The notes below the pieces were generated by a model. That model was given only the letters and a program-made list of their open reading frames with translations, did not search any database and was not told where the DNA came from. The position numbers and the translations under genes are program-made. A DNA stretch of 64,000 nucleotides, taken from the NCBI RefSeq assembly GCF_965657175.1, contig NZ_CBFHNH010000003.1:94155-158154 (forward strand), given 5' to 3'. Below are positions 15,764-23,291 of the stretch, piece by piece. This stretch comes from Pseudooctadecabacter sp. (lineage in GTDB: Bacteria > Pseudomonadota > Alphaproteobacteria > Rhodobacterales > Rhodobacteraceae). How positions within the stretch are numbered: position 1 is the first letter of the stretch; each line of letters opens with the position of its first letter.

Positions 15764-16648
15764 ATTGATGCCAACCGGTTGGACTGGAACCACCTGCGCG
15801 CGTTTCTGGCCGCCGCAGAGGCGGGGTCCTTGTCGGGTGCCGCCAAGACACTGACCCTAACGCAACCCACGCTCAGCCGCCAGATTGCGGCGCTTGAAGA
15901 CAGTTTGGGGCTGCTGCTTTTTGAACGGGTCGGGCGCGGTCTGGCGATCACCCAAGCGGGGCGTGAATTGCTGTCCCATGTTCAAGATATGGGGGCCGCG
16001 GCCCAACGTGCAGGCCTGACCGCAAGCGGCCAACGGTCTGACCTCAGCGGGTGGGTCACCATCACCGCCAGCGATATCATGGCCGCCAACCTATTGCCGG
16101 GAATTGTGGTCGATCTGCGCAAAGTCGCCCCTCAGTTGGCGATTGAGGTGGTGGCCACCAACGACATTTCCGATCTAATGCGCCGTGAGGCGGATATCGC
16201 CATCCGCCACATGCGCCCCGAAGAACCCGAACTTGTCGCACGACTGGTGCGTGAGGCCGTGGGGTATTTCTACGCCAGTACGGAGTTTCTGGACCGCGTC
16301 GGGCGGCCGCGAACACTCGAAGATATCAACGTCATGGATTGGGTCAGCTACGGCAACACCGACCGGATGATTGATTATATGACGGGCCTTGGACTGACCC
16401 TGACGCCGGCCAATTTCCGTGCCTCATCCGAGGACGGATTGGTGGCGTGGGAAATGGCCAAGGCGGGTCTTGGCGTTTGCCCCATCGACGATGTGGTGGG
16501 CAGCGCGACGCCGGGTATGGAAAAGGTCCTGCCCGACGTTCTGAAAGTCGCCTTCCCCATTTGGCTTGTCGCCCATCGGGAGCTTCACACCAGCCCGAAA
16601 ATCAGGCTGGTGTTTGATCTGGTCGCCAAAGCGCTAAAGGACCGTTAA
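15758..16648 (+). CDS. LysR family transcriptional regulator
   Basis: LRAFLAAAEAGSLSGAAKTL.LTQPTLSRQIAALE...LFER, READIAIR. Confidence 0.95.
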   Translation: MDIDANRLDWNHLRAFLAAAEAGSLSGAAKTLTLTQPTLSRQIAALEDSLGLLLFERVGRGLAITQAGRELLSHVQDMGAAAQRAGLTASGQRSDLSGWVTITASDIMAANLLPGIVVDLRKVAPQLAIEVVATNDISDLMRREADIAIRHMRPEEPELVARLVREAVGYFYASTEFLDRVGRPRTLEDINVMDWVSYGNTDRMIDYMTGLGLTLTPANFRASSEDGLVAWEMAKAGLGVCPIDDVVGSATPGMEKVLPDVLKVAFPIWLVAHRELHTSPKIRLVFDLVAKALKDR

Positions 16649-19044
16649 CCGCGCAAAGTGCCGCCGGTGGCCTTTGTCACCTTGTCGATAATCTTGGCGC
16701 TGACGGCCTCAATATCGGCATCTTTCAACGTGGCATCCACGGGCTGCAAACGCACCGTCATAGCGAGGGATTTTTTACCCTCACCCAGACTACCACCGAT
16801 GAATTCGTCAAAGACGCGCACATCATCGATCAGCGCCTTGTCGGCCCCCACGGCGGCGTTGACAGCCGTCAACGCATCCACGGTCGTGTCCATGACAAAG
16901 GCAAAATCCCGTTCAACCGCTTGAAGATCAGGAATGTAGGCCGCACCACGGTTGGCGGTTTGTTTCTTCGGCAACGGGATCTCAGCGGGGAACAGGGTAA
17001 AGCCCACGACCGGCCCTTTCACGTTCAGCGCGTTTAGGATCTTGGGGTGAATTTCACCGAAAATCCCAAGCATCTTCTTTGGGCCCAGACAGATTTTACC
17101 GTGACGGCCCGGATGCCATTCTGGCCCCGCATCCCGCAGGATCTGCACCTTCGCTGGCGCACCCATGGCGGACAGGATTGCCTCGGCGTCGGCCTTGGCA
17201 TCGTAGATATCGACGTCACGGGATGCCCCGTGCACGTCCTTGGCGGTGGTTTTACCGACCAAGATACCGGTCACGCGGGTGTGCTGTTCGCCGGGCTCAC
17301 CGCCCTGAAAAACATCGCCAGCCTCAAACAGGGCCATGTTGTTGAGGCCACGGGCCTGATTGCGGGCTGCGGCCTGCAACAGACCGGGCAACAAGGCGGG
17401 CCGCATGTGCGACATTTCAGAACTGATGGGATTGGCCAGCATGGTCGCGTCGGTGCCGCCACCGAACAATTCAGCCGCCGCTTTGTCGATAAAGCTGTAG
17501 GTCACGCATTCGTTGTACCCCAAGGCCGCCGTGGTCCGGCGTGCCATGGACAGACGTTTTTGCATAGGTGTCAACACGGGCGCAGGCACGCCGGCGCGCT
17601 GGCGGGCCATAGGCTGGGGTTTGAGGTTGGTGAGCGACGCCATGCGCGCGACTTCCTCGACCAGATCAGCCTCCCCCATGACGTCAGGGCGCCAAGACGG
17701 CACCTGCGCCATATCGCCATCCATGACAAAGCCAAGGGCAGTCAATGTGGCGCGCTGTTGATCGGCAGGGATGTCCATGCCCACAAGCGATGAACACCGC
17801 GCCGTATCGAGTTTGTAGGCACGTGAGGTGTCGGGGATTTCACCGGCCTGCACGACCTCAGACGCGTCACCGCCTGCGATATCCACGATCATGCGCACGG
17901 CATGTTCCAGACCCTCAGGCGTGAACGCGGGGTCAATGCCCCGTTCGAAACGGTACCGCGCATCGGAATTGATCTTCATCGCGCGGCCCGTGTAGGCCGT
18001 GCGAATGGTGTCGAAATAAGCGGCCTCCACAAAGACATTCACCGTGTCTTCGGTCACGCCTGTGCGCAGCCCACCCATGACACCGGCAATGGATTCCGGA
18101 CCTTCGGCATCGGAAATCACGGTGGCGCCTTCAGGGAAGGTGTAGTCTTTTTCGTCAAGTCCGGTCAGGGCCTCGCCCCCTTCGGCACGGTGCAAACGCA
18201 GGGCGTTGCCGGTGATCTTGTCGGCGTCAAAAACGTGCAACGGACGGTTCAGATCATAGGTGAACCAGTTGGTCACATCCACGAGGAACGAAATCGGACG
18301 CAAGCCAATGGCGCGCAACTGCTGTTGCAGCCAATCAGGGCTGGGGCCGTTTTTCACACCCTTAATCAGGCGGCCAAAAAACACAGGCGCTTGGCCAAGG
18401 GTGTCTGCGTCAATCGTCACCGACACAGGGCACGGGAAAGACGCCTCAACCGGATCAACGGTCAGCGGTTTTAACGTGCCCAGACCACGGGCGGCCAAAT
18501 CACGGGCCACACCGCGCACGCCCAATGCATCGGGACGGTTGGGGGTGATCGCGATCTCGATCACAGGGTCGACCTTGGCCGCATCATGTTCGGCCAGATA
18601 GTCGGCAAAGCTTTGGCCGATCTCTCCGGCGGGGAGTTCGATGATGCCGTCGTGTTCCTCGCTCAGCTCCAGTTCACGCTCGGACGCCATCATGCCGTGG
18701 CTTTCGATACCGCGGATTTTGCCCACGGAAATGGTGATGTCGAGGCCGGGGATATAGGTGCCGGGGCGGGCCACAACGACGGTAATCCCTTCGCGCGCAT
18801 TGGGTGCGCCACAGATGATTTGCGTTGGCCCTTCGCCATACTCCACCGTGCAGACGCGCAGCTTGTCCGCGTCGGGGTGTTTTTCCGCCGCTGTCACCTT
18901 ACCGATGATAAAATCGCTGAGTTTCGCAGCAGGGTTTTCGATCCCTTCAACCTCAAGCCCGAGATCGGTGAGGGCCTCTGCAATAGCATCCACAGAGGCA
19001 TCCGTGTCGAGGTGGTTTTTGAGCCAAGAGAGGGTGAATTTCAT
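16645..19044 (-). CDS. pheT: Phenylalanine--tRNA ligase beta subunit
   Basis: MKFTLSWLK, HPDADKLRVC, ITPNRPDALGVRG, RFERGIDP, VPSWRPDV, C-terminal FDX-ACB. Confidence 0.98.
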   Translation of the reverse strand: MKFTLSWLKNHLDTDASVDAIAEALTDLGLEVEGIENPAAKLSDFIIGKVTAAEKHPDADKLRVCTVEYGEGPTQIICGAPNAREGITVVVARPGTYIPGLDITISVGKIRGIESHGMMASERELELSEEHDGIIELPAGEIGQSFADYLAEHDAAKVDPVIEIAITPNRPDALGVRGVARDLAARGLGTLKPLTVDPVEASFPCPVSVTIDADTLGQAPVFFGRLIKGVKNGPSPDWLQQQLRAIGLRPISFLVDVTNWFTYDLNRPLHVFDADKITGNALRLHRAEGGEALTGLDEKDYTFPEGATVISDAEGPESIAGVMGGLRTGVTEDTVNVFVEAAYFDTIRTAYTGRAMKINSDARYRFERGIDPAFTPEGLEHAVRMIVDIAGGDASEVVQAGEIPDTSRAYKLDTARCSSLVGMDIPADQQRATLTALGFVMDGDMAQVPSWRPDVMGEADLVEEVARMASLTNLKPQPMARQRAGVPAPVLTPMQKRLSMARRTTAALGYNECVTYSFIDKAAAELFGGGTDATMLANPISSEMSHMRPALLPGLLQAAARNQARGLNNMALFEAGDVFQGGEPGEQHTRVTGILVGKTTAKDVHGASRDVDIYDAKADAEAILSAMGAPAKVQILRDAGPEWHPGRHGKICLGPKKMLGIFGEIHPKILNALNVKGPVVGFTLFPAEIPLPKKQTANRGAAYIPDLQAVERDFAFVMDTTVDALTAVNAAVGADKALIDDVRVFDEFIGGSLGEGKKSLAMTVRLQPVDATLKDADIEAVSAKIIDKVTKATGGTLRG

Positions 19045-19104
19045 CGCGTCAGGTCCTGCCAAATAAGGTGTTGGCGGGGGTTTAACGGAAAGGCCCAGCG
19101 GGGG

Positions 19105-19305
19105 CTAGTCCTTGCGGGTCTTCGCCTTGAGCCATTGGTTCACCGCAAAGACCGGCAGAATGATCACCGCCCAGCCCAGTGCGTTAAGACCGGTCAGCCG
19201 ACGCTTGGCCTCTAACGGAATATCGGGGTCACGCCACAACCCGATATGGGCGACCACGATCAACGTCACGAGGACGGCTAACCCAAGTTTTGACCGCTTT
19301 GTCAT
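19105..19305 (-). CDS. Small two-helix membrane protein, function unknown
   Basis: 66 aa, two hydrophobic segments. ATG overlaps the upstream stop (ATGA), GAGG RBS. Confidence 0.7.
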   Translation of the reverse strand: MTKRSKLGLAVLVTLIVVAHIGLWRDPDIPLEAKRRLTGLNALGWAVIILPVFAVNQWLKAKTRKD

Positions 19306-20504
19306 GTTGCCCTCGCGATGAAGCCCACGCGCAAAAAACGGCGCAGCAGGTCGGTCACGGTGTCGCGCAGTGCGGAACGCTCCACATCCGGCAGAGCATC
19401 AGCCAGAAGGTCAATGAGGTCGCTGGGCGAAATTGCCTCCTCAAGCAGGTCCAGAACATGTGCCGCGATTGCGTCAAACTGCAGCATCCGTTCCCCGTCA
19501 CAGCTGGCCCCGACCCAAACGTCGCCAGCGGGGTACAGGACTGCAAAACGTGTGCGCTGGTAGGCGCGCATAAAATCCAAAGCGGAGCGATCGGGGTGCG
19601 GTCCGGGGTGTGGGAACTGCACGTCCTGTCTGGGGGCCGGCAGCAGATGGTCAAGGCCAGACATCACAAGGTCTGCTGCCTCGCCAACATCACTGTAGGT
19701 CAGGCGCACCGCTGGGGCGGTCTGGGTCAATGTGATCAATGCGCTCAGCGCTTCGCCCGCTGGCAAGCCACGGGAGAAATTCTGCTTGGCCAGTGCGGCT
19801 AGAACGTCCCCCGAAGGCACCTCCGACAGGGTCGTGGGCCCATCGTCTGCACGGTCCAGCAGCACAATTGACCGGATGGGGGCCACCATGCCGTGCGCAG
19901 CAACAGTCTGTCCGCCGACATAGCGATACTGCTTGTTTTCAGGACCGGGGTTCGCGCCAACAAAGGTCAGCACCTCGGGCGGCAGCCCCTCTGGCAAAGG
20001 CAAACGCAGGCGCGCAGCGATCCCTGTGGCATGCCCAATCAACGCCCCGCTGGGACCGCGGTCAACCAGCAGATAATCATCGGTAAACAATCGCGCCCCA
20101 CGGGCCATCAGTGCCACAGACAGGGTCGATTTCCCCGCCCGTCGCAAGGCCGGGAACAGTGTCAGCCCGCCATCGCCCTCAACAGCGGCGGCGTGAAAAC
20201 ACAACCTGTCCGGCGATTGCGCGATCAACGCCGAGGCGAGAATGCTCAGCAGATCGCAGATGACATTCACCTGAGTCTTGTGGATGCGGGGTTCAGTGGT
20301 GTGAGGGGACTGGATCAACCATGCGGTGCCATTAAAGGCCAGCACGGCGCAAGGAACCTCGGGGCCGTATTCGGCCGGTACGGTCCGTTTTACAGTAAAG
20401 GGCCAGCAGGGAACGTACCCCGCCAGCCCTGTCACCAGATCATCGCAATCAACGCAGCGGACTGGGGCCGAAAGCCCCTGAAACCAGATATCGTGAACGG
20501 TCAC
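19302..20504 (-). CDS. HPr kinase-like P-loop protein fused to a C-terminal PqqD/RRE-like domain
   Basis: LCFHAAAV (HprK-type His), PALRRAGKSTL Walker A, LFTDD acidic pair. The last ~90 aa have the beta-beta-beta/alpha-alpha-alpha PqqD-like pattern (FDAIAAHVLDLLEEAIS.SDLIDLLAD....DTV.DLLRRF...GFI). Confidence 0.7.
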   Translation of the reverse strand: MTVHDIWFQGLSAPVRCVDCDDLVTGLAGYVPCWPFTVKRTVPAEYGPEVPCAVLAFNGTAWLIQSPHTTEPRIHKTQVNVICDLLSILASALIAQSPDRLCFHAAAVEGDGGLTLFPALRRAGKSTLSVALMARGARLFTDDYLLVDRGPSGALIGHATGIAARLRLPLPEGLPPEVLTFVGANPGPENKQYRYVGGQTVAAHGMVAPIRSIVLLDRADDGPTTLSEVPSGDVLAALAKQNFSRGLPAGEALSALITLTQTAPAVRLTYSDVGEAADLVMSGLDHLLPAPRQDVQFPHPGPHPDRSALDFMRAYQRTRFAVLYPAGDVWVGASCDGERMLQFDAIAAHVLDLLEEAISPSDLIDLLADALPDVERSALRDTVTDLLRRFLRVGFIARAT

Positions 20505-20520
20505 TGCACCGATGGGTCAA

Positions 20521-20913
20521 TTAGTTTGCGATGCGCAGACCGGCATCGGACAGACAGGATTCAAAACTGCTCTGGCTGGTGCTGGACGACTGGCAGTTGC
20601 CAATGGACGCATCAATATTGGCATCGCCCGTAGACGCGATGGACGGTGCGCTCCAATCGGAGGCCTCAGAGGCGGAGGGTGCTGATGCAGCAGAATAGGC
20701 CGACGACGCGGAGGATACCGAAGACGCCGACGAAACCGACGATGCGGGCGAAACCGATGAAGCGGACGAAACCGATGAAGCGGACGATGCTGAAGACGTG
20801 CCAGAGCTATGACTGGCCGCCATGACCGACATGGTCGGAGCGAAGACACCGGCTGTGGTAAGTCCAGCAAGACGCGTCAGCGCCGCACGACGGGACAGGG
20901 TTTTGGTTGTCAT
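20521..20913 (-). CDS. Tat-signal, serine-rich repeat peptide (putative kinase substrate/precursor)
   Basis: LSRRAAL twin-arginine motif plus hydrophobic stretch, (SSA/SSV)n core, C-terminal C-x12-C. AAGGGA RBS. Confidence 0.75.
   Translation of the reverse strand: MTTKTLSRRAALTRLAGLTTAGVFAPTMSVMAASHSSGTSSASSASSVSSASSVSPASSVSSASSVSSASSAYSAASAPSASEASDWSAPSIASTGDANIDASIGNCQSSSTSQSSFESCLSDAGLRIAN
20697..20800 (-). repeat. Degenerate 18-bp tandem repeat encoding SSASSV units
   Basis: TCGTCCGCTTCATCGGTT appears twice exactly on the minus strand, followed by diverged units. Confidence 0.8.
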
Positions 20914-21020: not shown

Positions 21021-22085
21021 TCAGGTGCCGCCATGCACTGTTGGGACCTGCAACGCGCTAAACCCGTAGTGTTTCAGCCAACGTAGATCGCTTTCAAAGA
21101 AGGCGCGCAGGTCGGGGATGCCGTATTTCAGCATCGCGATCCGGTCGATCCCCATCCCGAAGGCAAACCCCTGCCATTCATTGGGGTCGATGCCGCCCGC
21201 TTGCAGGACTTTGGGATGCACCATGCCGGACCCCAAAACCTCAAGCCAATCGTCGCCTTCGCCCACTTTCACAGTACCGCCTGAGAAATCGCACTGGATG
21301 TCGACCTCGGCGCTGGGTTCGGTGAACGGGAAATGCGACGCACGGAAACGGGTTTTCACCTTGGTGCCGAAGTAAGCGGTGAAGAATTCCTCTAGCGTCC
21401 ATTTCAGGTTCGCCATTGAGATGTCTTTGTCGATGGCCAGACCTTCGACCTGATGGAACATAGGCGTGTGGGTCTGGTCATAATCGGCACGGTACACGCG
21501 GCCGGGGCAGATGATGCGGATGGGTGCACCCTGTTCTTCCATAGACCGGATTTGTACGGGGCTGGTGTGGGTCCGCAGCACGTGGGGCGGGCGGTTATCG
21601 CCTTCGGCGCGGTGGGTGTAGAACGTATCCATCTCGGCCCGCGCGGGGTGGTGGCCGGGGATGTTCAGCGCGTCGAAATTGTACCAGTCGGATTCGATTT
21701 GCGGGCCTTCGGCAGTGGCAAAACCCATGTCCGCGAAGATAGCTGTGCATTCTTCCCAAACCTGACTTACCGGATGGATCGTGCCCTGACGCCGGTCCCG
21801 TCCGGGCAAGGTCACATCCAACCATTCCGCCTTCAGCCGTTCATCAAGGGCGGCATCGGCAAGGCCAGCCTTCTTGGCGGACAGCGCGGCGTTAATCTCA
21901 TCCTTCAGCGCATTCAAAGCGGGGCCGGCGACCTGCCGTTCCTCCGGCGTCATCTTGCCCAGTTCACGCATCTTGAGGCTGATTTCGCCCTTTTTGCCGA
22001 CAGCCTGCACGCGCAAGTCTTCGAGCGTGGATTCGTCCGCAGCGTTCCCGATAAGGTCGAGGTATTTGGATTTCAGATCGTCCAT
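21021..22085 (-). CDS. pheS: Phenylalanine--tRNA ligase alpha subunit
   Basis: [66 protein letters not shown]. Confidence 0.98.
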
Positions 22086-22211: not shown

Positions 22212-23291
22212 ATGACCGATCTGAACGATGTCCTTGACCCTCTGTTTGCGGCGTCCCATCCCGATGTGATGGCGCGCACCACGATGGAGGCCACACTACC
22301 GATTGCCTTTTTAACGGATGTGTACGCAGCAGAAGAAAACTCGGATATCCTTGCCGCCTATGCCCGTTGGACCCGGCGGATCATCGGGTCCGAAAACTGT
22401 TCAATTTCCCTGATCCAACCGGACACATCCCTCAAGATGTTGGCGATTTCAGGCGAAGAAACGATCGAAACCGATACGGTCCGCGCGCTGACGGCCTCAG
22501 CCGTCGGGGCGGTGGTGATGCGCAGGACGGGCCTGTTCGTTCCCTGTTTGGGCGATATACCCGTCGCTGCGGCCCAGACGGCGGCCAATAACGGGTTCCA
22601 ATGTTCCTACGTGGCCCCGATCCTCGCAGGTGAGACATGTTTTGGCACCCTCACGGCGAGTTTTCGGGTCGAAAGCGTGCGCCCCGCACGCGTTCTGACT
22701 GTGATTGAGGCTATGGCCCTGTGCATGGGGTCGCAGATGCTCCTCGTTGAACAGATGACGCGGCTGCGTGATGTCGCGTTAACCGACCCGCTGACCGGCA
22801 CAAACAACCGCCGCGCGTTGGACGAAGCGACACCTTTGACGTGGGAAAAGTGGGAGAAGGAAAAGGTGCCCTTCGCCATCCTCGCCCTCGATATTGATCA
22901 CTTCAAATCCGTCAACGACACCCACGGTCATACTGTAGGGGATGAAATCCTCAAACAAATGGCTCAGCGGATCATGGATCAGGTGCGCGAAGACGATATG
23001 GTGGTGCGTTTGGGGGGCGAAGAATTCGGCGTGCTGTTGCCGCGCACGAAATACGACACGTCCTTGCAAGTCGCCGAACGCATTCACGCGGCCATCCGGT
23101 CTGCGCCCTTTCGAGTGGGGGACCTTGTCTTGCCCGTCACGGCAAGTTTTGGCGTGACCGAGATTGCCTCTGACGATGTGTGCGCCGAAGATGTCTTGGA
23201 ACGCGCGGATCAGGCACTTTATGCGGCCAAACGGTCAGGACGCGACCGCGTGATCCGGTTCGATCACACCCGGTCCATATCGGCGGCCTAG
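22212..23291 (+). CDS. GAF + GGDEF diguanylate cyclase
   Basis: TDPLTGTNNRR, DIDHFKSVNDTHGH..GD, REDD I-site (RxxD) five residues before GGEEF, ADQALYAAKRSGRD. Confidence 0.93.
   Translation: MTDLNDVLDPLFAASHPDVMARTTMEATLPIAFLTDVYAAEENSDILAAYARWTRRIIGSENCSISLIQPDTSLKMLAISGEETIETDTVRALTASAVGAVVMRRTGLFVPCLGDIPVAAAQTAANNGFQCSYVAPILAGETCFGTLTASFRVESVRPARVLTVIEAMALCMGSQMLLVEQMTRLRDVALTDPLTGTNNRRALDEATPLTWEKWEKEKVPFAILALDIDHFKSVNDTHGHTVGDEILKQMAQRIMDQVREDDMVVRLGGEEFGVLLPRTKYDTSLQVAERIHAAIRSAPFRVGDLVLPVTASFGVTEIASDDVCAEDVLERADQALYAAKRSGRDRVIRFDHTRSISAA

Follow-up and report, generated by a model that had tools for sequence, protein, structure and literature searches.

Analysis of a 64,000-nucleotide (nt) stretch of a Pseudooctadecabacter sp. 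genome (contig NZ_CBFHNH010000003.1, positions 94,155 to 158,154; hereafter the window) revealed, between pheS and pheT, a pair of genes encoding a 130-amino-acid (aa) protein with a twin-arginine signal and a Ser-rich region and, after a gap of 16 nt, a 400-aa protein that combines an HPr kinase (HprK)-type domain with a C-terminal PqqD-type RiPP recognition element (RRE; RiPP, ribosomally synthesised and post-translationally modified peptide). This arrangement had been proposed in an original prediction, made from the letters of the window alone, and was found as proposed. The pair is real and widespread in Rhodobacterales, as judged from its conservation, and is undescribed in the literature searched, where no account was found of this family, of a RiPP with a twin-arginine translocation (Tat) signal or of an HPr kinase/PqqD fusion. 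Sequence comparison likewise indicates that the precursor and the kinase-RRE protein form a functional pair and are no accidental neighbours. The reading that we favour, with slightly better than even confidence, is that of a minimal two-gene RiPP-type peptide-modification cassette, in which an RRE-guided kinase would act on a Tat-leader precursor; within it, the binding of the leader, the phosphotransfer and its site or sites, the Tat routing, the cleavage site and the biological role are what we infer.

The deduced enzyme comprises an N-terminal domain (residues 1-95), an HprK/PEPCK-type P-loop domain (~96-285), a linker and the PqqD-type RRE (~313-400); it carries no signal peptide, in agreement with the original prediction. 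Its reading frame contains the motifs CFHAAAV, RRAGKST and TDD. The Pfam model PqqD (PF05402) matched residues 337-396 with 25.5 bits, above its gathering cut-off of 23.4, and a profile of 35 homologues of the enzyme, compared with the Protein Data Bank (PDB), gave TbiB1 (1e-7), LppB (9x8z, 2.9e-6) and TfuB1 (7e-6) as the best solved-structure matches of the RRE, together with PbaB1 (9x90), the identities of 9x8z and 9x90 being taken from PMC13381572. For the middle of the enzyme the best curated family was TIGR04352 (HprK-related kinase A, E = 8e-14), and the family profile also matched the HprK structure 3tqf in the PDB (E = 1e-4). The AlphaFold2 model (predicted local distance difference test [pLDDT] 94.4, predicted template modelling score 0.89) matched PEPCK and HprK/P folds in Foldseek searches, and its RRE is made up of strands (residues 315-343) followed by three helices (pLDDT ~95), which is the winged-helix organisation of PqqD. 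By profile and by fold, the proposed HprK-type kinase with a PqqD/RRE C-terminus is therefore upheld. Residues H104, G124-K125-S126, D142-D143, R165 and R167 are invariant in the 35 homologues, and since H104, G124-K125-S126 and D142-D143 are the counterparts of the HprK/P phosphotransfer residues, the kinase domain is likely to be active in catalysis.

When 185,579 species, each represented by one genome, were scanned with a profile from a 12-sequence subset of the homologues, 78 loci encoding a relative of the enzyme were found, nearly all in Rhodobacterales (Tabrizicola, Shimia, Aliiroseovarius, Defluviimonas, Actibacterium, Loktanella, Marivivens, Phaeovulum and other genera) and a few in gammaproteobacterial metagenome-assembled genomes (MAGs). 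The closest relative of the enzyme, with 90% identity, belongs to Pseudooctadecabacter sp., and the cultured carriers are Tabrizicola aquatica, T. soli, Shimia biformata, S. aestuarii, Actibacterium pelagium, Marivivens marinus and Defluviimonas aestuarii. The loci analysed, 79 in number, consisted of scan loci, two metagenomic loci and the window. A small open reading frame (ORF) with an RR leader lies on the same strand 40-230 nt upstream of the kinase-RRE gene in 76 of them by a loose test and in 74 by the strict family pattern, so that kinase homologues do co-occur with such peptides, a point on which the original prediction depended. Four loci without a precursor were inspected: L037 and L069 lack upstream sequence, while L019 and L051 show no such ORF. 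The enzyme family is large: an exhaustive hidden Markov model (HMM) search of 1.84 billion representative proteins yielded 634 full-length matches at E <= 1e-30, each standing for a cluster at 50% identity, and 3,809 at E <= 1e-10.

The genomic location of the pair varies among relatives. It is found between pheS and pheT in the window and its congener only, whereas elsewhere it lies between rplT and pheS or in the vicinity of infC or trpS, or adjoins a TRAP transporter or ptsP; the insertion between pheS and pheT, to which meaning had been attached at first, is thus genus-specific and was rejected as a feature of the system. These data also bear on a simpler explanation, namely that the small ORF encodes an ordinary secreted or periplasmic low-complexity protein whose adjacency to the enzyme gene results from shared regulation or synteny. 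The mature part of the precursors (median 73 aa) is indeed long for a RiPP, and the window genes are embedded in a housekeeping operon, where no separate promoter was detected for them; however, the pair stays together across all the contexts listed above, the leader possesses an RRE-type motif lacking in ordinary signals and is more conserved than the enzyme itself (mean column identity 62% against 41%), and the same type of leader precedes split kinase and PqqD genes in distant Alphaproteobacteria, all of which makes this explanation very improbable. Next to no credence can be given to the 130-aa ORF being a spurious frame running through a GC-rich repeat. Several ORFs overlap on both strands of the repeat region, but the N- and C-terminal parts are conserved at the protein level across systems that are 41-90% identical and in at least 74 loci, which effectively refutes this possibility, and a plausible AAGGGA sequence precedes the ATG of the precursor gene.

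The product of the window precursor gene begins with MTTKTLSRRAALTRLAGLTTAGVFAPTMSVMAAS, continues with the Ser-rich region and ends with SDWSAPSIASTGDANIDASIGNC-x12-CLSDAGLRIAN, its two Cys residues being C107 and C120. Its nearest relatives are the precursors of loci L004, L083, L085 and L001. The C-terminal domain is 87% identical in L004 and 49% in L001 (tblastn) and is present also in L082, L083 and L085, and both the leader and the C-terminal 45 aa are kept at the protein level in L001, L083 and L085, whose kinases are only 41-59% identical to that of the window. In the mature product, the C-terminal domain is likely to be closed into a loop by a disulfide bond. The precursor of L082 (3538-3981) is spread over two reading frames, with the break in the low-complexity region, reflecting either a frameshift or a repeat assembly error, and in L004 and L020 the comparable region contains runs of N.

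Across the family, the leader conforms to the pattern S72-R100-R98-K/R-A75-L86-x-R90-I/L-G89-x-L-A88-x-A-A75-Y96-x-x-P100-A78-F/L/M-T75-T86-L81-S92-M/V-A92-x-A93 (numbers are percentages; the logo is anchored on the invariant Pro), and the residue after A-x-A is Ser or Gly. The signals have a median length of 39 aa and an uncharged stretch of 22 aa (mean Kyte-Doolittle value ~1.4), with A-x-A at 92-93%, and the Tat-type regular expression RR.[FGAVML][LITMVF] matched 74 of 76 leaders. The architecture of a Tat signal, with an RR-containing n-region, a moderately hydrophobic h-region, A-x-A and considerable length, is therefore present family-wide. Embedded in the same leader is the motif Y-x-x-P-x-(F/L/M/V), with Tyr in 96% and Pro in 100% of the sequences. 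A motif of the form [Y/W]xxPx[L/V/I/A/F] is bound by the discrete RREs of lasso peptides and linear polyphosphorylated peptides (LPPs) through two hydrophobic pockets and beta-strand pairing (PMC13381572). Recognition of the leader by the RRE of the enzyme, as first proposed, is accordingly plausible on the strength of the YxxPx(F/L/M) motif and of the kinship of the RRE with TbiB1, LppB and TfuB1, with the reservation that the motif of the window precursor lacks Tyr. Nearly all members have a Ser at one of positions 1-5 past A-x-A, 14-18 residues from the Tyr.

Further evidence comes from a second cargo. In 22-31 marine loci (L012, L017, L018, L020, L021, L023, L025, L030, L038, L040, L041 and others), a second protein with an RR/YxxPx[V/I] leader is encoded directly downstream of the kinase-RRE gene, and consists, past the leader, of a Ser-rich linker and a C-terminal PepSY domain (PF03413 in seven of ten members; PDB 9vy3, 1.3e-11). 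Two otherwise unrelated cargoes thus have the leader and the Ser-rich linker in common, which argues, at the level of sequence comparison, that the recognition and action of the enzyme are directed at this module. The PepSY gene is followed by genes for an OmpR-type response regulator and then a histidine kinase, a neighbourhood suggesting that the modified proteins are connected with envelope signalling; counterparts of these three genes are absent from the window.

More distant relatives were found with a profile of the leader, which returned 46 short alphaproteobacterial peptides (42-74 aa) with Arg-rich or Lys/Gly/Cys-rich cores and missed the Rhodobacterales precursors; because only short peptides were returned, the latter are evidently seldom called as genes. 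Three contexts of the short peptides (65-73 aa) were examined (L087/L088, 5001-6478; L089, 5001-6480; L091, 5001-6396). In the first, the peptide gene is followed by a fused homologue of the enzyme (35% identity), and a subtilisin-like S8 peptidase is encoded upstream (L087). In the second, it is followed by genes for an unfused 288-aa kinase homologue (32% identity) and a separate 94-aa PqqD protein with a weak match to TIGR04353 ('HPr-rel-A system PqqD'), all within a sialic-acid/polysaccharide locus (NeuB, CMP-sialic acid, Wzy and glycosyltransferase genes); LPPs, too, are found in capsule loci. In the third, a TPR-methyltransferase gene follows, and there is no RRE.

These observations must be set against the possibility that the leader is a RiPP leader merely resembling a Tat signal, the peptide either staying in the cell or leaving it through an unlinked transporter after cleavage by an unlinked peptidase. 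Such a scheme would agree with the failure of Tat-signal HMMs to recognise the leaders, with the absence of a clean A-x-A from the window clade and with the S8 peptidase adjoining the precursor in the sister subfamily (L087), which hints at dedicated processing there. Nevertheless, the n-h-c architecture detailed above is invariant, the PepSY cargo (a member of an extracytoplasmic domain family) and the paired-Cys loops fit the periplasm, most loci encode no exporter, and the Tat system reportedly accepts small, unstructured and hydrophilic substrates. We consequently hold a non-Tat leader to be unlikely, while granting it appreciable weight.

How the enzyme might hold the leader was modelled with AlphaFold2 on a fused chain of the enzyme and leader residues 1-60 of the window precursor, the alignment covering the kinase only and the leader being left unaligned. 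Leader residues 1-34 were modelled at pLDDT 73-79; RRAALTRL folded into a helix, and MSVMAA, which follows VFAPT directly, into a strand that DSSP scored as paired. The ordered strand is consistent with strand addition to the RRE, yet falls short of proof. In a MAFFT joint alignment, the SRRxALxRLG segment of the leaders was placed on the Walker A segment of the kinase, LRRAGKSTLS; this correspondence is almost certainly coincidental and shows how easily short leaders corrupt joint alignments.

Binding of this kind would also suit an enzyme acting mainly as an escort or proofreading factor for Tat export, its RRE masking the signal and its P-loop serving as a nucleoside triphosphate (NTP) switch or in another transfer such as nucleotidylation. 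The RRE motif lies inside the h-region of the signal, which would necessarily be covered once the enzyme is bound; the neighbourhood has no conserved phosphatase, NTP-transferase or other tailoring gene; and the kinase domain is only distantly related to any characterised kinase. Chaperones that bind Tat signals are, moreover, well established: the cytoplasmic proteins TorD, DmsD and NapD bind a specific Tat signal and delay export until maturation is complete. The RRE, if it binds as supposed, would play the same logical role, although the folds are unrelated and these chaperones attend cofactor insertion and not peptide modification. What speaks against a mere escort is that all HprK/P phosphotransfer residues are invariant, that a pure chaperone needs no conserved Walker A and DD motifs, and that every characterised HprK-like protein of RRE-dependent pathways is a Ser kinase; we therefore think this role distinctly unlikely.

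The mature regions are unalignable between clades. They are dominated by Ser (27.8%), Gly (18.3%), Pro (10.7%), Ala (9.4%) and Thr (7.6%), hydrophobic and aromatic residues being nearly absent, and their repeats differ from clade to clade (SGG, SEP, SNSGP, TGG, SSASSV and others). Exactly two Cys residues, 7-16 residues apart, close a C-terminal loop in 59 of 75 precursors, and the loops fall into several classes, e.g. C-SGPTDDDAG-C and C-GPENLxDPxYxQ-C. The conserved parts of the precursors are thus the leader and the usual two-Cys loop; the region between them retains only its disordered, Ser/Gly/Pro/Thr/Ala-rich character, and the (SSx)n core that had been put forward as the target is not conserved as such. 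Pfam and NCBIfam contain no model for the precursor peptides, the matches obtained being limited to low-complexity noise and weak hits to TIGR02811. Two loci (L056, 1351-2195; L062, 4787-5796) carry two tandem precursors with a common leader before a single kinase-RRE gene, the extra copy having a much longer Cys-to-Cys spacing and a Pro-rich tail.

Under the favoured reading of an RRE-guided kinase and a Tat-leader precursor, the N-terminal 35-40 residues of the precursor would serve both as recognition leader and as Tat export signal. The C-terminal RRE would dock on Y/V-x-x-P-x-Φ (Φ, hydrophobic residue) inside the hydrophobic part of the signal and thereby position the beginning of the disordered Ser-rich segment at the fused kinase, which would transfer phosphate from ATP to Ser, either as a short chain on one junction-proximal Ser, in the way LppK and BsfK act on Ser3, or onto several Ser/Thr residues of the repeat. 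After its release, the modified, unfolded and hydrophilic polypeptide would be exported by the housekeeping Tat system and its signal removed by the housekeeping signal peptidase I, which would explain why the cassette contains no dedicated peptidase or exporter. The Cys loop would then oxidise in the periplasm, and the product would be an anionic, disordered phospho-polypeptide with a small terminal disulfide loop.

Several observations weigh against this scheme. The kinase domain lies far below the cut-offs of every curated HprK-type family (51.4 bits for TIGR04352 vs 200; 13 bits for TIGR00679, true HprK, vs 240), and the curated Tat-signal profiles of Pfam and NCBIfam are silent on the leaders, apart from TIGR02811 matches below cut-off (E 0.006-0.014). 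In the window precursor the motif Tyr is replaced by Val (VFAPTM, where sister sequences of its clade have YFAPTM or YFAPSM), and the c-region of this clade is AAS/SHS and not a clean A-x-A cleavage site; signal peptidase cleavage is predicted near AAS/SHS. The Ser-rich part of the fused-chain model is disordered (pLDDT <50) and lies outside the active site, and the linkers of some family members are poor in Ser/Thr (5-20%). Ala substitutions in the YxxPxL motif of BsfA failed to abolish phosphorylation, so that, by analogy, RRE binding may not be what directs the kinase. A repeat phosphorylated at multiple sites is without precedent, the characterised relatives modifying a single Ser. Finally, no clear transcript data were found, the sequencing runs that cover the locus being either DNA-like or of unknown type.

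HprK-like kinases are known to phosphorylate Ser in the precursors of RRE-dependent peptides (PMC8498205, PMC10368454, PMC13381572), the acceptor being the C-terminal Ser for ThcoK and SyanK, sometimes with phosphate chains, and Ser3 for BsfK. LppK, BsfK, ThcoK and SyanK all place one or several phosphates on a single Ser, and the multiple phosphorylation of the core that the original prediction took as the outcome is consequently only one of the options. The closest published system is that of the LPPs of Bacillota (LppA/K/B/S/D/N; Popov et al., Nat Commun 2026, PMC13381572), whose existence means that the present system is not wholly new, contrary to what had been suggested. LPP precursors have 35-200 aa; their leader (YxxPxVLxHQxIxFETxxS) is conserved, whereas their C-terminus varies. 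The machinery consists of LppB, which is a discrete RRE, of LppK, an HprK-like kinase that adds a polyphosphate chain to Ser3, and of a signal peptidase I resembling SipW and dependent on the RRE; the clusters also carry an MsbA-like exporter and an NTP-transferase, and LPPs are described as restricted to Bacillota (PMC13381572).

Like LPPs, the system described here has precursors in the 35-200 aa size range, an HprK-like kinase with a PqqD-type RRE, a YxxPxΦ leader, a variable C-terminus and no cyclase, and apparently also leader removal of the signal-peptidase-I type and an acceptor Ser just past the leader junction (14-18 residues from the Tyr, vs 18-19 in LPP and Bsf); among solved structures, LppB (9x8z) ranks second as a match of its RRE. 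It differs in that the RRE is fused to the kinase and not discrete, in that the leader has all the parts of a Tat-like signal (RR, h-region, A-x-A), in the lack of a dedicated SipW-like peptidase, MsbA-type exporter and NTP-transferase, and in its alphaproteobacterial hosts and its cores, which are long Ser/Gly/Pro-rich disordered stretches with a two-Cys loop. No cluster of SipW-like peptidases, MsbA-like exporters or NTP-transferases was common to the 79 loci within +/-6 kb. The system therefore lies outside the LPP family as defined by these cluster components, and from the sequence comparisons it most likely represents an export-coupled proteobacterial variant of phosphorylated ribosomal peptides.

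The system resembles the phosphorylated lasso peptides (paeninodin PadeK/ThcoK, SyanK, BsfK), where the YxxPxL leader of a linear precursor is bound by a B1 RRE and a kinase homologous to HprK adds one phosphate or a phosphate chain to one Ser, but its RRE is fused instead of discrete, and neither a lasso macrolactam synthetase (C) nor a B2 cysteine peptidase was found in the window or among the recurrent neighbour clusters. A C-terminal Ser cannot be the acceptor here, because the C-termini of the family are not Ser. The view that this is no lasso or lanthipeptide cluster thus holds, no cyclase, peptidase or dehydratase having been found within ~5 kb of the pair. HprK/P and the HprK-related kinases A and B (TIGR04352, TIGR04355) resemble the enzyme in their P-loop fold and in motif order (H..., G-K-S/T, DD), whereas the enzyme is far below the cut-offs of HprK/P and TIGR04352 and would have a leader-bearing peptide as substrate.

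Secretion signals on RiPP precursors have been reported for bufferins and other MNIO-modified RiPPs, which have Sec signal peptides (PMC11626156, PMC12452194), and for lipoprotein-pathway RiPPs (PMC13056109), and have been called highly unusual (PMC11626156, PMC12452194, PMC13056109). In these groups, as here, a general-secretion signal replaces the classical leader, modification is cytoplasmic and involves an RRE-containing partner, and some products are protein-sized; in contrast, MNIO enzymes act on Cys, and the signal is of the Sec or lipoprotein type and not twin-arginine. Neither these three publications nor the other literature searched mentions a Tat-type RiPP leader.

A bolder form of the scheme, which we consider possible but rather doubtful, is that the Tat signal itself has been recruited as a RiPP leader across Alphaproteobacteria, with an RRE, fused to an HprK-type kinase or acting as its separate partner, docking on YxxPxΦ in the hydrophobic core of the signal, that Tat export and signal peptidase cleavage are gated by modification and release and that the products are multiply phosphorylated disordered periplasmic polypeptides. 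Such products might be comparable to a bacterial phosvitin or osteopontin and might buffer cations or phosphate, or feed the PepSY/two-component sensor of the operon in many marine strains.

If the favoured reading is true, peptide phosphorylation by HprK-type kinases with RREs, known from lasso peptides and LPPs, would also take place in a large group of Alphaproteobacteria from marine and freshwater habitats, with at least 634 clusters, and the twin-arginine signal would be the first to double as an RRE-recognised leader, only Sec and lipoprotein signals having been reported for RiPP precursors. It would also account for a two-gene cassette without its own peptidase or exporter, provide a simple system in which modification is ordered before Tat export, and point to secreted, phosphorylated and disordered Ser-rich polypeptides as a class barely known in bacteria. 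The frequent link with PepSY and two-component genes would offer a handle on the role of the product, and the cultured carriers make the proposal directly testable.

Table 1. Coordinates, strand and characteristics of the features of the kinase-RRE locus in the window.
Feature	Position (nt)	Strand	Remarks
pheS	21021-22085	(-)	ORF; upstream flank, context only
Precursor gene, 130 aa	20521-20913	(-)	Leader/signal, disordered Ser-rich region and C-terminal two-Cys domain; homologous ORF in the same place in 74-76 of 79 loci
Leader/Tat-like signal, residues 1-~36	20806-20913	(-)	R8-R9, uncharged h-region, VFAPTM
Twin arginines R8-R9	20887-20892	(-)	Inside leader
VFAPTM, residues 23-28	20830-20847	(-)	Local Tyr-less form of the family motif YxxPxΦ
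Low-complexity Ser-rich region, residues ~35-100, SSASSV type	20614-20811	(-)	Candidate phosphate acceptor or spacer
DNA tandem repeat, period 18, 5.5 copies	20700-20798		Inside Ser-rich region; repeat analysis
Conserved C-terminal domain, residues ~85-130	20524-20661	(-)	SDWSAPS...IDA...C107-x12-C120-L.DAGL.I; tblastn conservation
Kinase-RRE fusion gene, 400 aa, GTG start	19302-20504	(-)	Pfam/NCBIfam/PDB-profile matches, AlphaFold2 and Foldseek
Walker A RRAGKST	20124-20144	(-)	Kinase domain
PqqD-type RRE, residues ~313-400	19305-19568	(-)	C-terminus of kinase-RRE gene
Hydrophobic membrane ORF, 66 aa (MTKRSKLGLAVLVTLIVVAHIGLW...)	19105-19305	(-)	ATG overlaps kinase stop codon (ATGA)
pheT	16645-19062	(-)	ORF; downstream flank, context only

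In the window, pheS and pheT, which are normally adjacent, are split by a three-gene insert of 1.96 kb with unremarkable GC content (Table 1). The precursor gene is separated from pheS by 107 nt, and the 66-aa ORF from pheT by ~40 nt. Since a promoter/terminator scan detected neither a sigma-70-like promoter nor an intrinsic terminator between pheS and pheT, the inserted genes are probably co-transcribed with the pheST operon. Two features of the insert had gone unmentioned in the original prediction, namely the tandem repeat underlying the Ser-rich stretch and the 66-aa membrane ORF. Conservation of the latter extends to the Pseudooctadecabacter MAG L004 alone (94% identity), all other loci, L082-L086 included, lacking it; with its conservation confined to the same genus, it was rejected as a third component of the system and is probably a lineage-specific passenger, here probably co-translated with the kinase gene.

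Within ~5 kb of the cassette, the window encodes a LysR protein, a methyltransferase, a GGDEF protein, rplT/rpmI and pyruvate kinase. Genes for a cyclase, a peptidase, a dehydratase, an exporter or an NTP-transferase were not found within this distance, nor was an HPr/phosphotransferase system (PTS) context in the window. Among the 79 loci, the recurrent neighbours are the PepSY protein, the OmpR-type regulator and the histidine kinase (22-24 loci), or clade-specific syntenic genes (ptsP, EcsC). In particular, 18 loci of the Tabrizicola/Rhodobacter clade (L013, L014, L016, L024, L027, L031-L033, L039, L043, L047 and others) have a convergent ptsP-type Enzyme I gene with phosphoenolpyruvate-utilising domains just downstream of the kinase-RRE gene, and an EcsC-family gene and an AMP-ligase-like gene upstream. 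The ptsP adjacency is probably clade synteny, curious as the proximity of PTS and HprK-like genes may be.

The GGDEF protein is a diguanylate cyclase with an uncharacterised N-terminal sensor region, encoded divergently between pheS and rplT (22212-23291, plus strand). On related metagenomic contigs the gap between pheS and pheT holds other genes, encoding a 197-aa protein and an ASCH protein, and this junction seems to tolerate insertions in the lineage of the window.

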